Shown: piece after piece, positions 3,001 to 63,178 of the stretch
How the letters are laid out: the number at the start of each line of letters is the position of its first letter
How positions within the stretch are numbered: the stretch's first letter is position 1
DNA from: a virus
Reading direction: 5' to 3' (one strand)
DNA length: 64,000 nt
IMG/VR virus record: IMGVR_UViG_3300008952_001422
Span: 63,032-127,031 of that record
Translations under genes and position numbers: made by a program
The notes under the pieces: generated by a model
The model's input: the letters and a program-made list of their open reading frames with translations, nothing else
Database searches by the model: none
What the model was told of the DNA's origin: nothing

Positions 3001-3749
3001 GAAAACTTGCAAAAGCGGCTGTAAAACATCCAATTAAAACAGCGGCAGTTGTTAGTACTGTAAAAAATAAAGACAAGACAGTAAAACAGAAAGCAACTGA
3101 CGTAGCACGAATAACATCAAGCAAATATGATTTAGATGAATTACAAGCACCTTATACTGGTCCAGATGCAGTAATAGATAAAAATGGTAAGGGGCATAAG
3201 CCTGGTAGTCCAAAAGCGAACATGATTATAAATATGAAAAAGAAGACACCAGTTGCTAAACCATTACAAAAAAAGACAGCAAACAAATCAGGTGTTAAAC
3301 CAGCACAAAGTACAGTAAAACCAGCAGGAGTAGGTAGAGGTAATGCACCTGGTTCAAAAGCGACTCAAATTCAACCTGGTGGTGGTAGTAAGGCAGGTAT
3401 GGCTAATAAGGCTACTCCATCACAAATTGCACAAGCGAAAAAAGATGTAATGAAGAATAAAGTTAGAGCAGTTGGTAAGAAAGTTTACGATATGGGCAAA
3501 TCTGCTATAGCAAAAAGTATGGACCGTACCGGAATGGGTAATCCTCTATCGGCATCTGAGTATTCTCCCGAAGATAAAGCGGTAGACATAATGAAAGGTG
3601 CTATGAAGAAAGTAGAAGAACTAAATACAAAACCTTCAGGTAAAATCACAGTTAAGAGAATCCCAGCGAAAGGACCGAAAGGACCGAAAGGTTATACGCC
3701 TGGTGACCATCATCCCCCTACTAAATTCAAGGCCTCAGTTAAATTTTAA
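15..3749 (+). CDS. large internal head/prohead-core-like protein, possibly a processed polyprotein; may start upstream of the window
   Basis: 1244 aa. Internal repeats (PIYDL...V/MVR.L..DTI..FV.DFR x2; Gly/Ala-rich segments after DE x2), a KPDFLDLDKDGNKKEPMKKA motif, many (I/L/V)xE sites. Frame is open to the window edge. Confidence 0.5.
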   Translation: MKSTAGIDAHLAEDNQPEPRKMQVTQADKDNNTEAWKRFRAGDPRYEWKDMILSKKEGDVSEAVGEFAQPIYDLIDDLGGDNDAHEIVLNDMVRYLGGDTIQDFVKDFRSNHDMNHPGEDGDYGEDDKNFESVKEATHGEAKPIYDLVGSLGAGDIELAQNPVFQDLVRFLDADTINKFVTDFRRKMAKDKDFKGSVDFGQYKESFNDEEYNDEERAGMEYTVWVGGTEVNDKWLNYEEAKELYDLWRAKGYDDVQLDARLKEGSFWGRDDMVAQMKRDELAAGMRKYTKDVDGVHSGSTTSDPEEWKRLEADGYEWDKDYYKDIEELEARWKKKHVKGESRTDEWAFVAPLAGVAGTAARVVGSGLGRAAMRGAVGGMVGKAVKKAASLGSDNATKSVRYGTTSTLPTSSSIEKFNDLNASKKPKKNAKKLNAVKEKQEKTDDLLKGFDPKTARALMMLKTKYPQADNVLSALLADVENNEKDSDVADLTQGHNIEKLKKAVDILQKEINLLKVDKKRNAVKEKAKPDFLDLDKDGNKKEPMKKAVKDKKKVSEDLDAVSKKIIKKLRQKAKDDYDKGRPIAKRKSDKEIIKKLRQDADDDIKARDKRNRKRHPEWFEAYNPETGRDPNKPTPEWDNLIAKAKKKQGISDEEEVWFNYEDIGGNIIVNPKSTIEDQIGELLNRYYDISPMEFDPSKIEITTPDQTNQDANFAKTQNARNTPVQEDKYSDLNPTNKFGYFGGPGFYSNDGSTYTEPHYDDFDIRQHNRDNPEDKIKLNNWADFNLKMSYHKKDGKRVQGFGGMGYNVSFHGNPKDVEAFAMQHLDAERYSGDNIPESESLPQQVSLASSLIASRQAKRNEVKKVREDEEAVAARDEFMKVMDMKPKGGLKDIPKAIDTIKKIVADKQNQQVKFDDGKMRVDLYTASAVSKVYDAVKPETQEKIDDMLRTKEGMLKMSNFAFSKLSEGIKAGKRIDEILPLAAIGAVAGGVARAVGGKLAKAAVKHPIKTAAVVSTVKNKDKTVKQKATDVARITSSKYDLDELQAPYTGPDAVIDKNGKGHKPGSPKANMIINMKKKTPVAKPLQKKTANKSGVKPAQSTVKPAGVGRGNAPGSKATQIQPGGGSKAGMANKATPSQIAQAKKDVMKNKVRAVGKKVYDMGKSAIAKSMDRTGMGNPLSASEYSPEDKAVDIMKGAMKKVEELNTKPSGKITVKRIPAKGPKGPKGYTPGDHHPPTKFKASVKF

Positions 3750-3761
3750 ACAAATAACCTA

Positions 3762-3790
3762 TTGACTTTTGAAGTCACCTATGTTAATAT
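3762..3790 (+). promoter_or_regulatory. sigma70-type promoter
   Basis: TTGACT-17 nt-TAATAT with TG extension, upstream of 3843 and PolB. Confidence 0.6.
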
Positions 3791-3792
3791 AT

Positions 3793-3817
3793 AAAGAGTG
3801 AGAAATCACTCTTTTTT
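3793..3817 (+). terminator. rho-independent terminator
   Basis: AAAGAGTGA-GAAA-TCACTCTTT followed by T run, downstream of the large ORF. Confidence 0.7.
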
Positions 3818-3842
3818 ATTGTCCAACTTATAGGAGATTTAT

Positions 3843-4103
3843 ATGTCAATTGACGCAATTAATGAAGAAGAAAAAGCAAAACTCATTCAATTAGTAAATG
3901 AAGGTTGTCTAGTTCTACAAGAAGTTGAAGACCTCAAAGGTGGATTACGTGATACAGTAAGAGCAATTGCTGAAGAAATCGATGTAAAACCAGCAGTTTT
4001 AAACAAGGCAATCTCGGTTGCACATAAGGCCAAACTATCTGAGATACGTGCTGACTTTGAAGATATGGAAACAATTCTGGAAACTGTAGGGCGTACTCTT
4101 TGA
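3843..4103 (+). CDS. small dsDNA-binding protein (T4 DsbA/GapR-like)
   Basis: 86 aa helical protein, SD AGGAG, immediately upstream of PolB. Confidence 0.45.
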   Translation: MSIDAINEEEKAKLIQLVNEGCLVLQEVEDLKGGLRDTVRAIAEEIDVKPAVLNKAISVAHKAKLSEIRADFEDMETILETVGRTL

Positions 4104-6907
4104 GTTATGTAGATGCATTCTACAACAAAGATAAGGACATTGTTCAAGTTGTAGAACGAATAAAAGGCAAAAGAGTTTATAATGATTATCCAGCGTGGCG
4201 CACTTTCTATGTGAAAGACCCACGCGGTGACCATATAAGTATTCATGGTGACAAAGTACGACAAATCAAATGTAAACGTCTTAAAGACTTACACAAAGAA
4301 CGAAAAATAAATACTGGTAAAACATTTTACGAAAGTGATATTAAACCAGAAGTTCGTTGTTTGAGTGAGAATTATAATGGAATTGATTCACCTACTCTAA
4401 ATACTGCCTTTTTCGATATTGAAACAGACTTCGATGCAAGTCGAGGGTTTGCTGACCCTAGTGACCCATTCATGCCAATCACGGCAATCACAGTTCATCT
4501 TCAATGGTTAGACTTACTTGTAACACTTGTTATCCCACCCAAGTCAATGAGAAGTGGTGAAGGTCTTAAAGAGGCAGAAAGAATTTGTGAGCAATTTGAG
4601 AATACTCAATTATATCTAAGTGAAGTAGATATGCTTAATGACTTTTTAGATGTCATTGAAGATGCTGATGTGTTGGCTGGTTGGAACTCTGAAGGTTATG
4701 ATATTCCATACATTGTGAATAGAATAACTGAAGTACTAAGTAAATCACATACACGCAAGTTGTGTCTATGGGAATTAGAACCTCAGAAACGTAGAATAGT
4801 AAAATATGGTAAAGAACAAGAAACATTTGACTTGTTCGGAAGAATTCACTTAGACTACCTAGAATTATATCGTAAGTACACATATCACGAAATGCACTCA
4901 TACGCACTTGATACAATTGGTGAACACGAAGTAGGTGAACAAAAAGTTGCATATGACGGCACACTAGACCAGTTATACAACAATGACTTCTATAAGTTTG
5001 TTGAATATAACAGACAAGACGTTGCACTACTTGATAAGATTGATAAGAAACTAAGATTTATCGAACTGGCAAACGAGATTGCACACGATAATACAGTAAA
5101 CATCAAAACAACAATGGGTGCAGTTGCAGTTACAGAACAAGCAATCATCAACGAAGCACATAGACGTGGTATGGTTGTTCCAGATAGAAAGAAAAAAGTT
5201 TGGTCAGATGATGATGTAGAATTATCAGATGAAGAATTACACGAAGTAGAAATGCAAAAGGCCGCTGGTGCTTTTGTGGCAGTTCCCAAAGCAGGATTAC
5301 AGAGATGGGTAGCAGGTATTGATATCAACTCTCTTTATCCATCAGTTATTCGTGCGATGAATATGTCACCAGAAACAATTGCAGGACAACTAAGACCTGA
5401 CTTGACTGAAAAGATGATTGGTGATAGAATATCAGAGGGTAGAAAAACAGGTGCTAAAACATTTGGTTCATCTCAAGCATGGGATGAAACATTTAGTACA
5501 GAAGAATTCCGTTTAGTTAATGAGAGGGACAAAGCAAGTAATATTACATTAGTACTTGAAGATGCACCATGGGAAGAAAACAAAACAACTCAAGCACTAT
5601 CAGGTCAAGAGGCATATGATTTAATATACAATAGCGAATTGAACTGGACTCTTACTGCTAATGGTACTATATTTAAACAAGATGTTCAAGGTATCATTCC
5701 TAGTTTGTTAGAACGTTGGTATGCTGAACGACAAGTAATGCAAGAGAACAAGAAACTTGCCATTAAAGATGGTGATGCTGAAGAAATAGCATTTTGGGAT
5801 AAACGACAACTTGTTAAGAAGATTAACTTAAACTCATTATATGGTGCGATTTTGAATCAAGGATGTCGTTTCTATGATAAACGTATTGGTCAGAGTACAA
5901 CTCTAACAGGTCGTTGTATAACAAGACACATGGGTGCAAAGTGTAATGAAGTAATCGTTGGCGAATATGATTATAAGGGTCCAGCAGTTATATATGGTGA
6001 CACAGACTCTATCTATTATTCAATGTATCCTGTTTACAAACAAGAGATTGATGACGGTAGTATTGAATGGGATAAAGAAAAAGTATTAATGTTATATGAT
6101 GAAGTTGCCAATCAAGTCAACGCAAGTTTTCCAGATTTTATGAAAACGTTCTTTAATGTTCCTAGAAAAGAAGGTGAGATTATTGTTGCTGGCCGTGAGA
6201 ATTGTTCGATTACAGGTATTTTTATTAAAAAGAAACGATACGCATTGCTTATGTATGATGACGATGGTGTTCGCCGTGATGTAGATGGTTCACCTGGTAA
6301 AGTCAAAGTAATGGGAATTGACATAAAGAGAAGTGATACTCCACCATATATGCAAGATTTTCTAAGTGAAGTTCTACTGAAAGTGTTAACTGATGGCACA
6401 CGTGAAGAAGTCATTGAGATGGTTAAAGAGTTTAAGAAAGAGTTTAGAACAAAACCAGGTTGGGAAAAAGGTTCTCAAACTCGTGTAAACAATCTAACTT
6501 CATACAAGAACAGAGTGAACGCCGCAAAGAAGGCAATGGCAAGAGATTTGAATAATGGTGGTGATAAATCTAAAAGAGATAAAGTCCACTTACCTGGACA
6601 TGTCGCCGCATCATTGAATTGGAATATGTTACGAGAACTTAATCAAGACCGATATGCAGTAGAAATTGTAGATGGTATGAAGACGATTGTTTGTAAACTA
6701 AAGCCAAACACGTTCAAGTTGAAAAGTGTTGCATATCCTGTAGATGCGACTAAAATACCAGAATGGTTTCAAAAACTTCCATTTGACCATGAGTTGATGG
6801 AACAAACTATTGTTGATAAGAAATTAGACAACCTAATTGGAGTATTAAATTGGGATATGAGTGATGCAAATGCATCAGAAACTTTTGATAATCTTTTCGA
6901 TTTGTAA
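4100..6907 (+). CDS. polB: family B DNA polymerase
   Basis: Exo FFDIET, GWNSEGYD; polymerase motifs DINSLYPS, KINLNSLYG, YGDTDS, KKRY; C-terminal FDNLFDL. Confidence 0.97.
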   Translation: MSYVDAFYNKDKDIVQVVERIKGKRVYNDYPAWRTFYVKDPRGDHISIHGDKVRQIKCKRLKDLHKERKINTGKTFYESDIKPEVRCLSENYNGIDSPTLNTAFFDIETDFDASRGFADPSDPFMPITAITVHLQWLDLLVTLVIPPKSMRSGEGLKEAERICEQFENTQLYLSEVDMLNDFLDVIEDADVLAGWNSEGYDIPYIVNRITEVLSKSHTRKLCLWELEPQKRRIVKYGKEQETFDLFGRIHLDYLELYRKYTYHEMHSYALDTIGEHEVGEQKVAYDGTLDQLYNNDFYKFVEYNRQDVALLDKIDKKLRFIELANEIAHDNTVNIKTTMGAVAVTEQAIINEAHRRGMVVPDRKKKVWSDDDVELSDEELHEVEMQKAAGAFVAVPKAGLQRWVAGIDINSLYPSVIRAMNMSPETIAGQLRPDLTEKMIGDRISEGRKTGAKTFGSSQAWDETFSTEEFRLVNERDKASNITLVLEDAPWEENKTTQALSGQEAYDLIYNSELNWTLTANGTIFKQDVQGIIPSLLERWYAERQVMQENKKLAIKDGDAEEIAFWDKRQLVKKINLNSLYGAILNQGCRFYDKRIGQSTTLTGRCITRHMGAKCNEVIVGEYDYKGPAVIYGDTDSIYYSMYPVYKQEIDDGSIEWDKEKVLMLYDEVANQVNASFPDFMKTFFNVPRKEGEIIVAGRENCSITGIFIKKKRYALLMYDDDGVRRDVDGSPGKVKVMGIDIKRSDTPPYMQDFLSEVLLKVLTDGTREEVIEMVKEFKKEFRTKPGWEKGSQTRVNNLTSYKNRVNAAKKAMARDLNNGGDKSKRDKVHLPGHVAASLNWNMLRELNQDRYAVEIVDGMKTIVCKLKPNTFKLKSVAYPVDATKIPEWFQKLPFDHELMEQTIVDKKLDNLIGVLNWDMSDANASETFDNLFDL

Positions 6908-7518
6908 TGACTAAGACTTACACAGATTTAGTAGGAAGACGAAGCAGTAATGCAATATCAGATGAATGCTATACTCCTTCTGACCAAGTTCTTCCATTAT
7001 TAGAATATCTAAACAAAGACAATACTTACTATGAAGCAACTAGCGGAAAGTCTAATTTAATTGTAGACGGCTTCAATAAAAATGGATATAAGATAGTGCC
7101 AAGTAATGATAAAGATTTCTTTGACTGTGGTCCAGATGATGTATATGATGGAATAATAACTAATCCACCATATAGTATTAAAGATAAGTTTATAGAACAT
7201 TGTTATTCTCTTGGTAAACCATTTGCGTTACTATTACCAGTAACAAGTTTTCAAGGTGGAAAACGAGGTAAGATGTTTATTAAACATGGTATGTCTACAC
7301 TTGTGTATAACAATCGGGTAGATTTCACAGGAACTGGTAATCCTACATTTGGAAATGCTTGGTTTATGTGGGGTATTATACCATCTAATACTATCTATTG
7401 GGTCGATAATCCAAAGAATGGTCAACTTCAATATACAACTGAAGATAAAAAGCCATGGGTACTACGAAAAAGAAAAGATAATACAGCAAAATCATTTGAT
7501 AATCTATTCGATTTATAG
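6907..7518 (+). CDS. phage DNA N6-adenine methyltransferase-like protein
   Basis: DECYTP start, motif-I-like YEATSGKS, catalytic ITNPPY, KPFALLLP. Confidence 0.75.
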   Translation: MTKTYTDLVGRRSSNAISDECYTPSDQVLPLLEYLNKDNTYYEATSGKSNLIVDGFNKNGYKIVPSNDKDFFDCGPDDVYDGIITNPPYSIKDKFIEHCYSLGKPFALLLPVTSFQGGKRGKMFIKHGMSTLVYNNRVDFTGTGNPTFGNAWFMWGIIPSNTIYWVDNPKNGQLQYTTEDKKPWVLRKRKDNTAKSFDNLFDL

Positions 7519-7519
7519 G

Positions 7520-7549
7520 TTGACAAGTGGTTCTAAATTATGTTATAAT
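7520..7549 (+). promoter_or_regulatory. sigma70-type promoter
   Basis: TTGACA-18 nt-TATAAT with TGn extension. Confidence 0.7.
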
Positions 7550-7579
7550 TAATTTAATAATTAAATAAAAGGAGTAAAA

Positions 7580-8335
7580 ATGCGTGATATTTTAAAGGAT
7601 ATTGTCAAACACACACATTCGCTAGGTATTATCCAAGCGGCTAAAGTGACAACAGATAAAGAGGGAACTACAATCGATGCAATGGACGAAGACCGTACTG
7701 TTGTATTGAGTGGTAAATTACATGCACCAGTTCCTGAATTCGAAGGCAAGTTCGGTCTAGGAAGATTAAGTGTCTTAAGTGGATTACTTGACTATACTGG
7801 CGAAGACAAAGAAGGCAATCCTATTGTAGCAGATGTTAAAGTAGGAACAGAATCACGAAATGGTGAAGATGTTACTACTGAACTTAACTTCTCTATGCCA
7901 GGTGGTTTTGATAGTTCATATCGAGTAATCGTAAGTGAATTAGTAGATGCACAAATCAAAACAGCAACTTTTAGAGGTGCGGCATGGAATGTAGAAATTA
8001 TGCCAACACAAAAAGCAATCAAAGACTTACAATACTTTGCAGGTATTCTAGGTCAATTTGACCCACTACTTACTGCGAGAACAGTGAATGGTAATTTAGT
8101 TTTCTATATCGGTGATAGTTCAACAGATAAAGTAGAACTTCCATTTGCAAACAATGTAGAGGGTGAACTAAAGACAGGTTGGAGTTTTCCATTGTCAACA
8201 GTTCTAACTATTCTTAGACTTAGTGATACAAGTACTATGAACATGAAGTTATCCGACCAAGGTGCGATGATGATTTCAGTTGATAGTGGTTTAGGTTTAT
8301 ACGAGTACATTCTACCAGCAAAAGCCGGCAACTAA
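7580..8335 (+). CDS. probable sliding clamp (gp45/PCNA-like)
   Basis: 251 aa, clamp-like size, beta/alpha pattern, C-terminal YEYILP strand, location next to PolB; fold inferred. Confidence 0.5.
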   Translation: MRDILKDIVKHTHSLGIIQAAKVTTDKEGTTIDAMDEDRTVVLSGKLHAPVPEFEGKFGLGRLSVLSGLLDYTGEDKEGNPIVADVKVGTESRNGEDVTTELNFSMPGGFDSSYRVIVSELVDAQIKTATFRGAAWNVEIMPTQKAIKDLQYFAGILGQFDPLLTARTVNGNLVFYIGDSSTDKVELPFANNVEGELKTGWSFPLSTVLTILRLSDTSTMNMKLSDQGAMMISVDSGLGLYEYILPAKAGN

Positions 8336-8359
8336 TTTATAATAATATTAGAGTTTTAT

Positions 8360-8367
8360 TATAAATA
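8360..8367 (+). promoter_or_regulatory. T4-type late promoter
   Basis: Exact TATAAATA in the intergenic region upstream of 8413. Confidence 0.55.
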
Positions 8368-8412
8368 CATCGAGGAGGTTGTAACTGGTAAGACTCATTA
8401 TAGGAGAAATGA

Positions 8413-8607
8413 ATGGGAAAAATCAACGCAGAGAAAATCAAAACACGCCTAATACACTTAAAAAAACAACACAGAGACTTAGATGATGGTATTATAACTG
8501 CATTCAAGATGCACACAGATGACCAAGTTGTCTCTAAATTAAAACTTAAAAAGTTACATCTTAAAGAAGAAATTGTTCAATTAGAAAGAGACCTAGAAGA
8601 AATCTAG
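8413..8607 (+). CDS. DUF465/YdcH-like small coiled-coil protein
   Basis: LKKQHRDLDD.I ... LKLKKLHLKEEI pattern. Confidence 0.75.
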   Translation: MGKINAEKIKTRLIHLKKQHRDLDDGIITAFKMHTDDQVVSKLKLKKLHLKEEIVQLERDLEEI

Positions 8608-9158
8608 TGAGCATACTCAAACCAACACCAAAAACAATCCAAAATTTGATAAGAGTCATTCCAGACCATCCGAGGCCTGGCGTACTCTATCAGGATATGG
8701 CAAGTGTCTTTAATGCGGCTCGAGGTATACAAGATGTCATGTCATTGTTTAATGATTATATCTCAGAGAATAATATAAAATTTAACAGAATCATTGGACT
8801 AGATGCACGTGGATTTCCAATGGCTGGATGTTTAAGTTCAGAAACTGGCATACCATTTTCAATGGCTAGAAAGAAAGGTAAACTACCAGGCGAAACAATA
8901 TTTACTGAATATGAACTAGAATACGGAACTGACGAATTGCACTTACAAGTAGATGCAATAGAGAAAGGGGACCAAGTATTGATTGTAGATGATGTTATAG
9001 CAACAGGTGGAACACTGGAGGCAGCCATTAAACTAACTGATAGATTTGAAGCCGAGGTTGTAGGTATATTAAGTATAATGGAACTTGAGTTTTTGGGTGG
9101 TGGTGAGAAATTGCGTGATGCAGGGCATGACGTGTACTCAATATTACAAGAACAGTAG
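8607..9158 (+). CDS. apt: adenine phosphoribosyltransferase
   Basis: IPDHPRPGVLYQD, DARGF, RKKGKLPG, YELEYG, PRPP motif VDDVIATGGT. Confidence 0.95.
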   Translation: MSILKPTPKTIQNLIRVIPDHPRPGVLYQDMASVFNAARGIQDVMSLFNDYISENNIKFNRIIGLDARGFPMAGCLSSETGIPFSMARKKGKLPGETIFTEYELEYGTDELHLQVDAIEKGDQVLIVDDVIATGGTLEAAIKLTDRFEAEVVGILSIMELEFLGGGEKLRDAGHDVYSILQEQ

Positions 9159-9168
9159 CATAAACCAC

Positions 9169-9197
9169 TTGACTTTTGTGTTAAAATTTTGTATAAT
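9169..9197 (+). promoter_or_regulatory. sigma70-type promoter
   Basis: TTGACT-17 nt-TATAAT directly before metK. Confidence 0.7.
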
Positions 9198-9203
9198 AGG
9201 AGT

Positions 9204-10292
9204 ATGAATAACTATATTTTTACTAGTGAGAGTGTAAGTGACGGTCATCCTGACAAGGTTGCAGACCAAATTAGTGATGCATTAGTTGATGCAGGACTTA
9301 AAAATGGTGATGAAAAGACACGGATAGCGGTCGAAACACTCGTAACTACAAATCACGTAACGTTAGCAGGTGAAGTAAAGAACTTTAACGTGAGCAAAGA
9401 AGATGTTGAGCAAATTGTTCGTAATAAAGTTAAAGATATCGGATATGAACAAGGAGGCTTTCATTGGGATAAACTAAAGATTTATAATGAGATTCACACA
9501 CAATCTGGTGATATCGCACTAGGAACCGATGATTTCGGCGCTGGAGACCAAGGATTAATGTTTGGTTATGCGTGTAACGACAACGAAGCAATGATGCCAG
9601 CACCTATATATTACGCACACGAAATACTTAAAGACCTCAAAGAAAAACGCAAAGGTGGTTATGAATATATGTTGCCAGATGCAAAATCACAAGTAAGTTT
9701 GCAATATGAAGGTGGTAAAGTAAAACGTGTTGACCAGATTGTAATATCACATCAACATACAAAAGGATTTGGACATAGTATTAAAATGCCTTGTAGAGAT
9801 TCAGCAGAAAAAATACTAAAAGGTTTGATAGATGATGAAACTGTATGGTATATCAATCCTACGGGCAAGTTTGAGATTGGTGGACCAGATGGAGATGCCG
9901 GAGTAACAGGTAGAAAGATTATTGTTGATACATACGGCGGTTATGCACCTCATGGTGGCGGTGCATTCTCAGGAAAAGACCCTACGAAAGTAGATAGAAG
10001 TGCCTCTTATATGGCACGATGGTTAGCAAAGAATGTTGTAGCAGATAACATGGCAGATTGGTGTCAAATTCAATTGAGTTATGCTATCGGTGTTAAAGAG
10101 CCAACTAGTATCTATGTAGATAGTGATGGACACAATCGTAGTATTGAAAAGTTTATTGCTGAGAATATTGATTTAACACCAAAAGGGATTATTGATAGAT
10201 TTGATTTATTCAACTTTCATCAATATAGTAAGAATTGTGTATACGGACATTTTGGTGACAAAGATGTTCCATGGGAGAAAATAGGATGGTAA
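9204..10292 (+). CDS. metK: S-adenosylmethionine synthetase
   Basis: FTSESVSDGHPDK, GAGDQG, GGGAFSGKDPTKVDRS; ATG at 9204 preferred to the TTG at 9189. Confidence 0.97.
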   Translation: MNNYIFTSESVSDGHPDKVADQISDALVDAGLKNGDEKTRIAVETLVTTNHVTLAGEVKNFNVSKEDVEQIVRNKVKDIGYEQGGFHWDKLKIYNEIHTQSGDIALGTDDFGAGDQGLMFGYACNDNEAMMPAPIYYAHEILKDLKEKRKGGYEYMLPDAKSQVSLQYEGGKVKRVDQIVISHQHTKGFGHSIKMPCRDSAEKILKGLIDDETVWYINPTGKFEIGGPDGDAGVTGRKIIVDTYGGYAPHGGGAFSGKDPTKVDRSASYMARWLAKNVVADNMADWCQIQLSYAIGVKEPTSIYVDSDGHNRSIEKFIAENIDLTPKGIIDRFDLFNFHQYSKNCVYGHFGDKDVPWEKIGW

Positions 10293-25386: not shown

Positions 25387-25749
25387 ATGATGAATGACCC
25401 AGACTTTGATAAGTTAATGGATGAAATATTTCCAATGAGTATTCCAACAGAATACGTAGAAAAAATACTAGTAACATTAGCAAGTGGTCAAATGATTGAA
25501 ATGTCAGGTGATGAATTATTACATCCACTGCCACTTGCTGATGATTTAAATTGGGAAAGACTCGTACACAGATTTGATAAGATTGCTGATGTTCAAGTAA
25601 AGATAAATGTTACAAAGATTAAATCTGATGTTTCTAAAAATGTAAAAACAATTCTAGGCGCCCATTTTAAAAGTAATAATACAGATACCGGAACTGTCAA
25701 TGGAGAAATAGAAGATGAGAACAAGGACATATTGACCGGCAATGATTAA
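25387..25749 (+). CDS. hypothetical protein
   Basis: 120 aa with SD. Confidence 0.6.
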   Translation: MMNDPDFDKLMDEIFPMSIPTEYVEKILVTLASGQMIEMSGDELLHPLPLADDLNWERLVHRFDKIADVQVKINVTKIKSDVSKNVKTILGAHFKSNNTDTGTVNGEIEDENKDILTGND

Positions 25750-26305
25750 CATGATACTGGCTGCCGATGAATTGGGCAGTATCGGATTCAAAAACGGCCT
25801 TCCCTGGCCAAAACTCAAAGAAGACTTACACTGGTTTAAACAACTCACTGAAATGAATGTAGTAGTTATGGGTTCCAATACTTGGAAAAGTCTTGGTGTA
25901 CACGCACCATTAACATCCAGATACAATTACGTAATAACTTCATCACATAAGAAAGATGATTTTCCTGGTTGTTTTGGAGTTTGTAATCCAAGTGAAGACT
26001 CAGTTGAGATTATTCTTAAGTCTTTAGACTTTGGTCATCCTGACAGAGATATATTTGTTATTGGTGGAAAGACTTTATTTGATGAAGCCTATGAGTATTG
26101 CGATGCTATATTTTTGACTAGAGTACACGACCAATATCCCTCAGATACTAAAGTTGATATAGAAAAGTACATTGACGATTTTGTTATACTCAATCAATTG
26201 TATAGTCAAGGCACCCAACATATTCCTGATATAACGTTTGAAACCTATTTAAGAGCAGGTGAAGAAAACGAGGAAATTGAATGGGATGACGATATACCAT
26301 TCTAA
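25742..26305 (+). CDS. folA: dihydrofolate reductase
   Basis: IGFKNGLPW..LKEDL.WFK, VVMG, FVIGG, LTRV; acidic tail DDDIPF. Confidence 0.9.
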   Translation: MINMILAADELGSIGFKNGLPWPKLKEDLHWFKQLTEMNVVVMGSNTWKSLGVHAPLTSRYNYVITSSHKKDDFPGCFGVCNPSEDSVEIILKSLDFGHPDRDIFVIGGKTLFDEAYEYCDAIFLTRVHDQYPSDTKVDIEKYIDDFVILNQLYSQGTQHIPDITFETYLRAGEENEEIEWDDDIPF

Positions 26306-62952: not shown

Positions 62953-63178
62953 CTACCTTGCACGAGAAGGTTCTATACTTAGTTAATCCTTTAAATTGAC
63001 TAATGGGTTCTAAATCTGCTTGTATTACATTTAATACCTGACTATGATAATATGTTGTATCACTCAAGTATTTAATTTCACTATTTAATTTATATCCCAC
63101 AAAAAGCAACAGTAAAGTCCATACAACCAGCATAAAGGTCACTGACATTACTATCATTGTTTCCATTGCTCTAGTCAT
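62927..63178 (-). CDS. small membrane protein
   Basis: N-terminal TM segment. Confidence 0.5.
   Translation of the reverse strand: MTRAMETMIVMSVTFMLVVWTLLLLFVGYKLNSEIKYLSDTTYYHSQVLNVIQADLEPISQFKGLTKYRTFSCKVGDGQIYYD

Follow-up and report, generated by a model that had tools for sequence, protein, structure and literature searches.

A polymerase-type C-terminal peptide on a small phage methyltransferase as a putative sliding-clamp tether

Why should a small phage methyltransferase end in the same peptide as the DNA polymerase encoded directly upstream of it? The question arises from a 64,000-nucleotide stretch of viral DNA (IMG/VR record IMGVR_UViG_3300008952_001422, positions 63,032 to 127,031; hereafter the window), in which the genes for a family B DNA polymerase (PolB), a 203-residue methyltransferase and a predicted PCNA-like sliding clamp follow one another in the same orientation. 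The window makes up the right half of a viral contig of 127,031 bp (34% G+C) with an estimated CheckV completeness of 35%, and its source is probably a large T4-related marine phage. We consider it likely that the methyltransferase tail is a clamp-interaction motif, which would tether the enzyme to loaded clamps and couple methylation to replication. The elements under discussion are as follows, in window coordinates unless a contig is named.

4100–6907, + strand: family B DNA polymerase (T4 gp43-like), 935 amino acids; Pfam DNA_pol_B (4e-33) and DNA_pol_B_exo1 (6e-20); phrog_262, DNA polymerase (6e-189)
6884–6907, + strand: PolB C-terminal peptide FDNLFDL, presumed to bind the clamp, and TAA stop, which shares bases with the start codon of the methyltransferase (TAATG)
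6907–7518, + strand: methyltransferase open reading frame (ORF), 203 amino acids, starting inside the PolB stop (TAATG)
6907–7413, + strand: methyltransferase catalytic core, residues 1–169; Rossmann S-adenosylmethionine (SAM) methyltransferase with DECYTP and TNPPYS invariant and no target-recognition domain
7414–7488, + strand: linker, residues 170–194, predicted to be disordered; hypervariable in length and sequence among relatives
7489–7518, + strand: methyltransferase C-terminal peptide KSFDNLFDL and TAG stop, a putative clamp-interaction motif; conserved with synonymous change, with predicted clamp contacts
7520–7549, + strand: sigma-70-type promoter for the clamp gene (TTGACA, 18 nucleotides, TATAAT, with TG); 12 of 12 consensus matches
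7580–8335, + strand: PCNA-like sliding clamp by predicted fold, 251 amino acids, two domains and an interdomain loop at about residues 126–135; phrog_12062 (unknown function)
G000:C1:16512–17438, same contig: clamp-loader-like AAA+/DNA_pol3_delta2 ORF (PF13177/PF00004)

Two matching tails beside a predicted sliding clamp

PolB ends in ASETFDNLFDL and the methyltransferase in AKSFDNLFDL. The 24 nucleotides that encode the shared peptide and the stop (TTT GAT AAT CTT TTC GAT TTG TAA in PolB, TTT GAT AAT CTA TTC GAT TTA TAG in the methyltransferase) have three differences, namely two synonymous leucine changes (CTT/CTA and TTG/TTA) and the stop codon (TAA/TAG). A preliminary description of the locus had pointed out both the common FDNLFDL ending and its synonymous-only DNA divergence, and both can be read directly from the sequence. 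Only these two of the 1,017 ORFs in the contig (stop-to-stop, at least 40 amino acids) end in FDNLFDL, and a looser scan of ORF ends found no further copy of the motif in the contig. Because the contig is only about 35% complete, further clamp clients may lie outside it, elsewhere in the phage genome. Across all DNA fetched for the analysis, a stricter C-terminal pattern matched 39 of 1,218 distinct ORF ends, comprising 25 PolB, 14 methyltransferase and 0 other proteins; a loose pattern was too permissive alone, matching 55 of 1,152 'other' ends, among which were fragments of PolB that had gone unrecognised, antisense ORFs and a baseplate protein.

The precedent for such tails is the T4 replisome, and the preliminary description was right to invoke it. 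According to the accessible text of PMC2988020 and PMC9690074, the C termini of T4 gp43, gp55 and gp33 bind the clamp gp45. They do so through interchangeable hydrophobic, acidic epitopes, the one in gp55 being carried on a divergent linker of variable length (PMC2988020, accessible text). T4 gp43 ends in ASLDFLFG, and by analogy with it the PolB tail of the window would bind the resident clamp.

The product of 7580–8335, which had been put forward as a probable clamp, does have the predicted fold of one. Its AlphaFold2 monomer model (predicted local distance difference test (pLDDT) 96.4, predicted template modelling (TM) score 0.91) shows two topologically repeated domains, and all Foldseek matches listed from the PDB (ranks 1–47) were PCNA, with a best expectation value (E) of 1.2e-11 and TM scores of 0.62–0.69. 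The protein is named by fold alone, because sequence searches gave no name: the curated families in Pfam and NCBIfam (including gp45 PF02916/PF09116 and PCNA) matched neither it nor 69 homologues, and a PDB profile search returned nothing relevant. It has 584 homologues at E ≤ 0.001. The contig thus encodes a cognate sliding clamp as well as a clamp-loader-like ORF.

Modelling of the clamp with methyltransferase residues 164–203 gave a complex score of 0.77, against 0.00 for the best of three controls, although PCNA–peptide complexes are abundant among solved structures and the score may reflect this likeness and not binding by this particular pair. Of 80 solved complexes 58 reach that mark, as do 2 of 110 mismatched pairs; these counts apply only approximately here, since the model was built from our own alignments. 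The runs shared at least 81% of contacts, with a partner pLDDT of at least 53. Residues 189–203 of the methyltransferase were placed against clamp residues 38–42, 127–134 (the interdomain loop), 227–229 and 244–250 (the C terminus). This surface is the site at which PCNA-interacting peptide (PIP) boxes sit on PCNA, so that the structure prediction proposed earlier for the methyltransferase tail puts it in the canonical clamp pocket.

The enzyme that carries the tail is most likely a small NPPY-type DNA methyltransferase of the N6-adenine kind, as judged from its motifs and its modelled fold. It matched phrog_799 'DNA methyltransferase' at 1.7e-30. Both TNPPYS, a motif IV of the (D/N)PP(Y/F) type, and DECYTP were invariant in alignments of 28 and of 18 sequences. 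The AlphaFold2 core has a pLDDT mostly above 90 (blocks of 79–97) and a SAM-dependent Rossmann fold; its best Foldseek matches were the N6-adenine methyltransferases type I HsdM, M.TaqI and PacII (E of 6e-5 to 1e-3), with BseCI also among the matches (E range 6e-5 to 2e-3). A PDB profile search gave marginal or weak methyltransferase matches only, to HsdM and PacII, a single-sequence search gave a weak match to an hsdM model, and searches of Pfam and NCBIfam named no family. We found no target-recognition domain in the protein, which consists of a core of about 165 residues and a linker; its structural matches (proteins of about 190–900 residues) cover only catalytic domains, and the interval from PolB to the clamp showed no specificity gene. 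We infer that DNA is the substrate, which a clamp tail would itself favour.

The tail was said to sit on a linker beyond the catalytic domain, and both alignments and model bear this out. The family core ends at about WVDNPK (residues 165–170), the pLDDT falls below 50 for residues 174–201, and the linkers of relatives are 6–25 residues long and cannot be aligned. Relatives from the phrog_799 family align with the core over query residues of about 13–166, at 27–51% identity, and among the 40 records listed every match stops by query residue 173, short of the tail.

Conservation of the tail and similar tails in other families

We collected 80 loci through the methyltransferase alignment, of which 25 carry the motif. 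In distant members of the same clade (clade A, with a PCNA-like clamp), PolB, methyltransferase and clamp are each about 65–81% identical to those of the window, and the methyltransferase gene again follows PolB. Their methyltransferases end in KSFDNLFDL, KSFDKLFKL, KAFDNFFDL, KSFDKLFEV, SVFDDLFE, SQFDILFE, SQFNILFE or CIFNDLFE behind unalignable linkers, and PolB in the genomes of distant members ends in ETFEDLFSF, EQFENLFEF, EQFESLFDF and others. Loci L046, L047 and L049 combine a PolB ending in ETFEDLFSF with a methyltransferase ending in KSFDNLFDL, and the two tails are also unlike each other in L053, L059, L062, L063, L065, L074, L079 and L081. In these genomes the tail of the methyltransferase therefore does not duplicate that of the resident PolB.

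Between the window and L046, 6 of the 7 FDNLFDL codons differ, and the six scored codons hold 6 synonymous and 0 nonsynonymous changes; the linker is unalignable. For 14 tail-bearing clade-A genes, the ratio of nonsynonymous to synonymous change (pN/pS) was 0.150 in the six motif codons and 0.153 in the 151-codon core, as estimated from 78 non-independent pairs among 13 sequences of equal core length and a motif of only six codons. At the sequence level this indicates that the tail peptide is kept by purifying selection. With only synonymous change in the motif between the window and L046, and with another ending on the L046 PolB, the tail is neither a recent nor a neutral copy; the neutral duplication remnant that the preliminary description had named as its refuter was not upheld, the tail being retained in distant relatives when the linker is not. 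Separately, a 186-amino acid ORF between methyltransferase and clamp (L048:5616–6176) ends in TIDTLFEV, and ORFs of 514–541 amino acids just past the clamp (L051:6370–7914 and L079:7390–9015) end in TVEDLFA and SVDALFG; all three are possible clamp clients.

Six of the 80 loci come from classical T4-like phages (clade B), where neighbouring genes include a gp45 clamp (PF09116, 2.7e-14) and the gp44 clamp loader; the clade-B clamp at L078:2894–3565 matches PF09116. These loci encode the same small methyltransferase family, not adjacent to PolB, with the endings SDLSAFFS, SDLTAFFS, SNLTAFFS, NTLDDFID, ADLLEFME and VDLSEFME. PolB in the T4-like loci that were fetched ends in (T/N)LEDFF(G/T/V), and on the L078 contig a PolB ending in TTLEDFFG accompanies the methyltransferase ending in SDLSAFFS. 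Same-genome PolB tails in clade B were found in 3 of 10 records searched, only one of which (G006, with L078) had a clearly tailed methyltransferase; PolB is absent from the contigs of L075, L076, L098, L099 and L102. Where the clamp is PCNA-like the tail takes the form F-x-x-L-F, and in the gp45 clade L-x-x-F-F, in each case like that of its own polymerase. In these sequences, tail type covaries with the clamp and polymerase clade.

Tails of the clade-B type also appeared on unrelated methyltransferases when the ORF ends of all fetched DNA were screened. One D12/Dam methyltransferase (L108:1210–2100; PF02086, 4e-27) ends in NTLEDFMI. Among its best 120 homologues, 118 had a recognisable core end and 100 extended at least 7 residues beyond it, and 67 of these 100 have L-x-x-F-hydrophobic within the last 9 residues, typically STLEDFFG. 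An enzyme of the PF01555 family (N6_N4_Mtase; L077:6557–7324, 8e-28) ends in NNLKEFI, and 32 of its best 120 homologues end likewise (NNLEEFFSS and TNLNEFFY among them). Phage C48C1, whose genome is complete, encodes a PolB ending in ATLEDFFG and, directly downstream, a Dam ending in STLDAFFG (L129:295–1179). It was the only one found with a tailed enzyme; the cultured cyanophages that we checked gave none. The tail-less Dam of T4 and of the cultured cyanophages checked may be why the pattern has gone unremarked.

Many PF01555 homologues of the L077 enzyme carry another recurrent ending (NNPLLSAMK, SNPLADLL, QNPLLEALY, NPLLNAL), which might serve for docking to a different partner or kind of clamp. 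Endings of possible clamp clients were also seen on a 113-amino acid protein with a weak match to the DNA ligase domain Nlig-Ia (L113:6774–7115 and L116:6770–7111; EVTLEDFF) and on a 184-amino acid protein of unassigned function (L080:7158–7712; GNLNAFL). A TET-associated glycosyltransferase (L093:2845–3753) ends in TIDDYWE, a doubtful match to a PolB-like tail.

Gain and loss of the gene, and rival explanations

A different picture comes from 36 IMG/VR loci (L001–L036) collected through the clamp. All 35 close relatives share the PolB tail ETFDNLF[DE]L. The clamp promoter begins 2 nucleotides past the methyltransferase stop and is the sole perfect site within 3700–8700. PolB ends in TAA overlapping an ATG in 17 of 17 methyltransferase-bearing genomes, and in TTA TAG followed directly by the GTTGACA promoter in 20 of 20 loci that lack the gene. 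On the PolB tree, presence and absence of the methyltransferase are scattered: the tail-bearing window is sister to methyltransferase-less L016 (support 100/99), and the tail-bearing pair L029 and L030 to methyltransferase-less L028 (100/100). Together with the shared 3' ends described below, this scatter implies that the tail repeats take part in the recombination by which the gene is gained and lost. The methyltransferase tail is, as read from these sequences, very likely derived from the PolB 3' end. As an observation in its own right, near-identical phages are polymorphic for the presence of the methyltransferase gene, in keeping with its exact excision or acquisition via the two tail-coding repeats.

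Several of these and other observations weigh against clamp tethering. The gene is missing from 20 of the 36 clamp-found loci, and 14 of 16 methyltransferase-bearing close relatives lack the motif and end in QSKKRIGQI or QSKKTKSIIG; only L029 and L030 of the 16 keep NNLFDL (PLNNLFDL). The 3' end of the methyltransferase gene in the window (CTA TTC GAT TTA TAG GTTGACA) is identical, base for base, to the PolB 3' end of methyltransferase-less relatives, and repeat recombination could help to hold both tails identical in this genome. More widely, 51 of the 80 methyltransferase-found loci are without the motif (another 4 are cut by a contig end), and some lineages have degenerate-looking tails (KKTFDIDV, KKTIDIGNE, KKGIDIDSK). 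Of the best 120 database homologues, 64 have an extension of fewer than 10 residues, 20 a longer one without the motif and 19 a longer one with it, and in 17 the anchor was not found. The small-family homologues of cultured P-SSM2 (ending in AVLPL) and P-TIM68 (AKLLL) are tail-less, as are the Dam enzymes of S-PM2, P-HM1, Syn33, S-SSM4 and T4. The preliminary description had looked to conservation of the tail in relatives, and had asked whether homologues elsewhere lack it; retention stands for distant clade members and fails for most close relatives, and many homologues do lack the tail. In this sequence sample the tail is dispensable and accessory, as many relatives do without it. The enzyme, too, has neither a target-recognition domain nor a Pfam match, and its weak fold matches include the tRNA m6A enzyme TrmM; NPPY also occurs in HemK and tRNA m6A enzymes, which give weak matches to the methyltransferase. 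RNA has been suggested as a possible substrate of some very small phage Dam-like enzymes in the accessible text of PMC7824862, which does not establish that they belong to the same family as the protein studied here.

Could the tail then be a neutral scar, left when duplication or fusion of the PolB 3' end accompanied insertion of the methyltransferase and without function as a peptide? On the sequences of close relatives alone this explanation survives. It would account for the identity of the methyltransferase 3' end and promoter with the PolB 3' end and promoter of relatives without the gene, for the position of the gene, which in this clade begins in a TAATG overlap at the end of PolB (the unrelated Dam of Phage C48C1 also lies directly after PolB) and for loss of the tail in many relatives. 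It does not fit the preservation of the motif over about 30% protein divergence by synonymous change only, next to a scrambled linker, or the tails that in at least 12 loci do not match that of the resident PolB, that sit on methyltransferases not adjacent to PolB and that recur in three unrelated methyltransferase families. We therefore regard a neutral scar as very improbable. A role at the DNA level, with the direct repeats kept as recombination handles for excising or acquiring a cassette between PolB and the clamp promoter and peptide identity as a by-product, draws on the perfect partition of PolB ends (TAA(TG) in all 17 genomes with the gene, TAG and GTTGACA in all 20 without) and on the scattered presence of the gene (window versus L016, L029 and L030 versus L028). 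Recombination repeats should, however, be conserved as DNA, whereas from clade to clade the motif has changed at almost all of its synonymous sites, and the tail is retained in genomes whose PolB lies kilobases off or ends in another peptide. As the whole explanation this seems unlikely to us, but it can hold alongside clamp binding and not only instead of it. We rejected conservation of the tail DNA as an UP-element for the clamp promoter, since the sequence shows synonymous variation and several genomes have no clamp gene immediately downstream: in L063, L068–L070, L074, L079 and L081 it lies about 1.1–2.9 kb further on.

A shared functional peptide might also act by regulation, binding the clamp or another partner common to PolB in order to compete with PolB, to time clamp use or to recruit non-catalytically. 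The evidence for a functional shared peptide applies equally here; T4 places the same epitope on the non-replicative gp33 and gp55 (PMC2988020, accessible text), and non-methyltransferase ORFs in related loci, such as the 113-residue proteins of L113 and L116, end similarly. The catalytic DECYTP and TNPPYS are nevertheless invariant in tail-bearing members, and acquisition of the tail by three methyltransferase families points to methylation as the activity that is recruited, which leaves a regulatory role improbable. Tethering of an active methyltransferase to the clamp is the reading that we prefer, and the comparative checks proposed in the preliminary description speak for it, with the qualifications given above.

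A proposed mechanism and its known parallels

Under clamp tethering, the catalytic core would be joined by its disordered linker of about 25 residues to KSFDNLFDL, a clamp peptide of the same type as the PolB end. This peptide would dock in the pocket beneath the interdomain connecting loop of the PCNA-like, presumably trimeric clamp, in vivo as in the model, and would hold the methyltransferase on clamps loaded on replicating DNA, where newly made DNA would be methylated at the fork or just behind it. The expected benefit would be to shield DNA from restriction as it is replicated. An in-frame fusion or duplication at the PolB 3' end probably supplied the tail, and the two tail-coding repeats would now let the gene be gained or lost by recombination. 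Beyond this locus, we see about an even chance of a wider pattern, in which the polymerase clamp peptide has been captured by at least three unrelated methyltransferase families (small NPPY, Dam/D12 and PF01555) in jumbo and T4-like marine phages, each tail fitting its own clamp. Such capture would be convergent and widespread and would protect nascent DNA before host restriction, with the tail repeats making the gene an excisable cassette next to PolB.

Neighbouring genes were noted in passing. Directly upstream of PolB, an 86-amino acid ORF (3843–4103) resembles the T4 late-transcription regulator DsbA; its matches are PF11126 (3e-4, which falls short of the cut-off), phrog_639 'transcriptional regulator' (3e-6) and phrog_12534 (9e-19). 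Downstream of the clamp, 8607–10292 holds an adenine/xanthine-type phosphoribosyltransferase (PF00156, 1e-17) and then a 367-amino acid ORF that, by eye alone, is SAM synthetase-like; a phage-encoded SAM supply of this kind would suit heavy methylation. The ORF at 25736–26305 ends in EEIEWDDDIPF, an SSB-like acidic tail as read from the tail alone.

A tailed methyltransferase would be a new class of clamp client. Our full-text literature search, limited to papers outside subscription-only journals, found no paper in which a DNA methyltransferase from a phage or a bacterium is tied to a sliding clamp. Phage clamp clients are known for replication and for T4 late transcription, and a clamp-tethered methyltransferase would add epigenetic self-protection to this 'tool-belt'. 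If true, tethering would account for how so minimal and domain-poor an enzyme modifies a rapidly replicating genome. It would also supply a sequence rule for clamp clients in uncultured phages, namely a C-terminal peptide that matches the tail of the resident PolB. The peptide and the clamp, combined with a single-molecule real-time (SMRT) or nanopore methylome, make an easy experimental system.

Compared with T4 and RB69, the locus has in common an extreme C-terminal hydrophobic and acidic peptide that is shared by the polymerase and another client and is carried on a variable linker. It differs in that its putative client belongs to the DNA methyltransferases, a kind of protein that the accessible text of PMC2988020 and PMC9690074 does not name among T4 clamp clients (T4 Dam is tail-less), in that the clamp is PCNA-like without the gp45 Pfam signature, and in that the motif reads F-D-N-L-F-D-L, not L-D-F-L. 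Gamma-class N6-adenine methyltransferases (HsdM, M.TaqI and the PacII methyltransferase) share the Rossmann core and the NPPY motif IV and are the best structural matches, but the phage enzyme is only the core of about 165 residues, without a target-recognition domain or specificity subunit, matches them at E 6e-5 at best and lies outside curated families. A homologous core is also found in tail-less phrog_799 members from Thermus phage phiYS40/TMA, Podophage Lau218 and the Prochlorococcus phages P-SSM2 and P-TIM68. A functional parallel is eukaryotic: a motif in Dnmt1 binds PCNA and enhances the activity of the enzyme on freshly replicated DNA marked by the clamp (PMC9690074, accessible text), so that both systems pair a DNA methyltransferase with a short clamp-binding motif under the same proposed logic. 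The two are not homologous. DNMT1, a large C5-cytosine enzyme, has its motif at the N terminus and serves epigenetic inheritance, whereas the 203-residue NPPY enzyme has its motif at the C terminus and would presumably serve restriction evasion. If clamp tethering is true, the phage locus would be an independent, convergent parallel of DNMT1–PCNA, and its counterpart in a prokaryotic virus.

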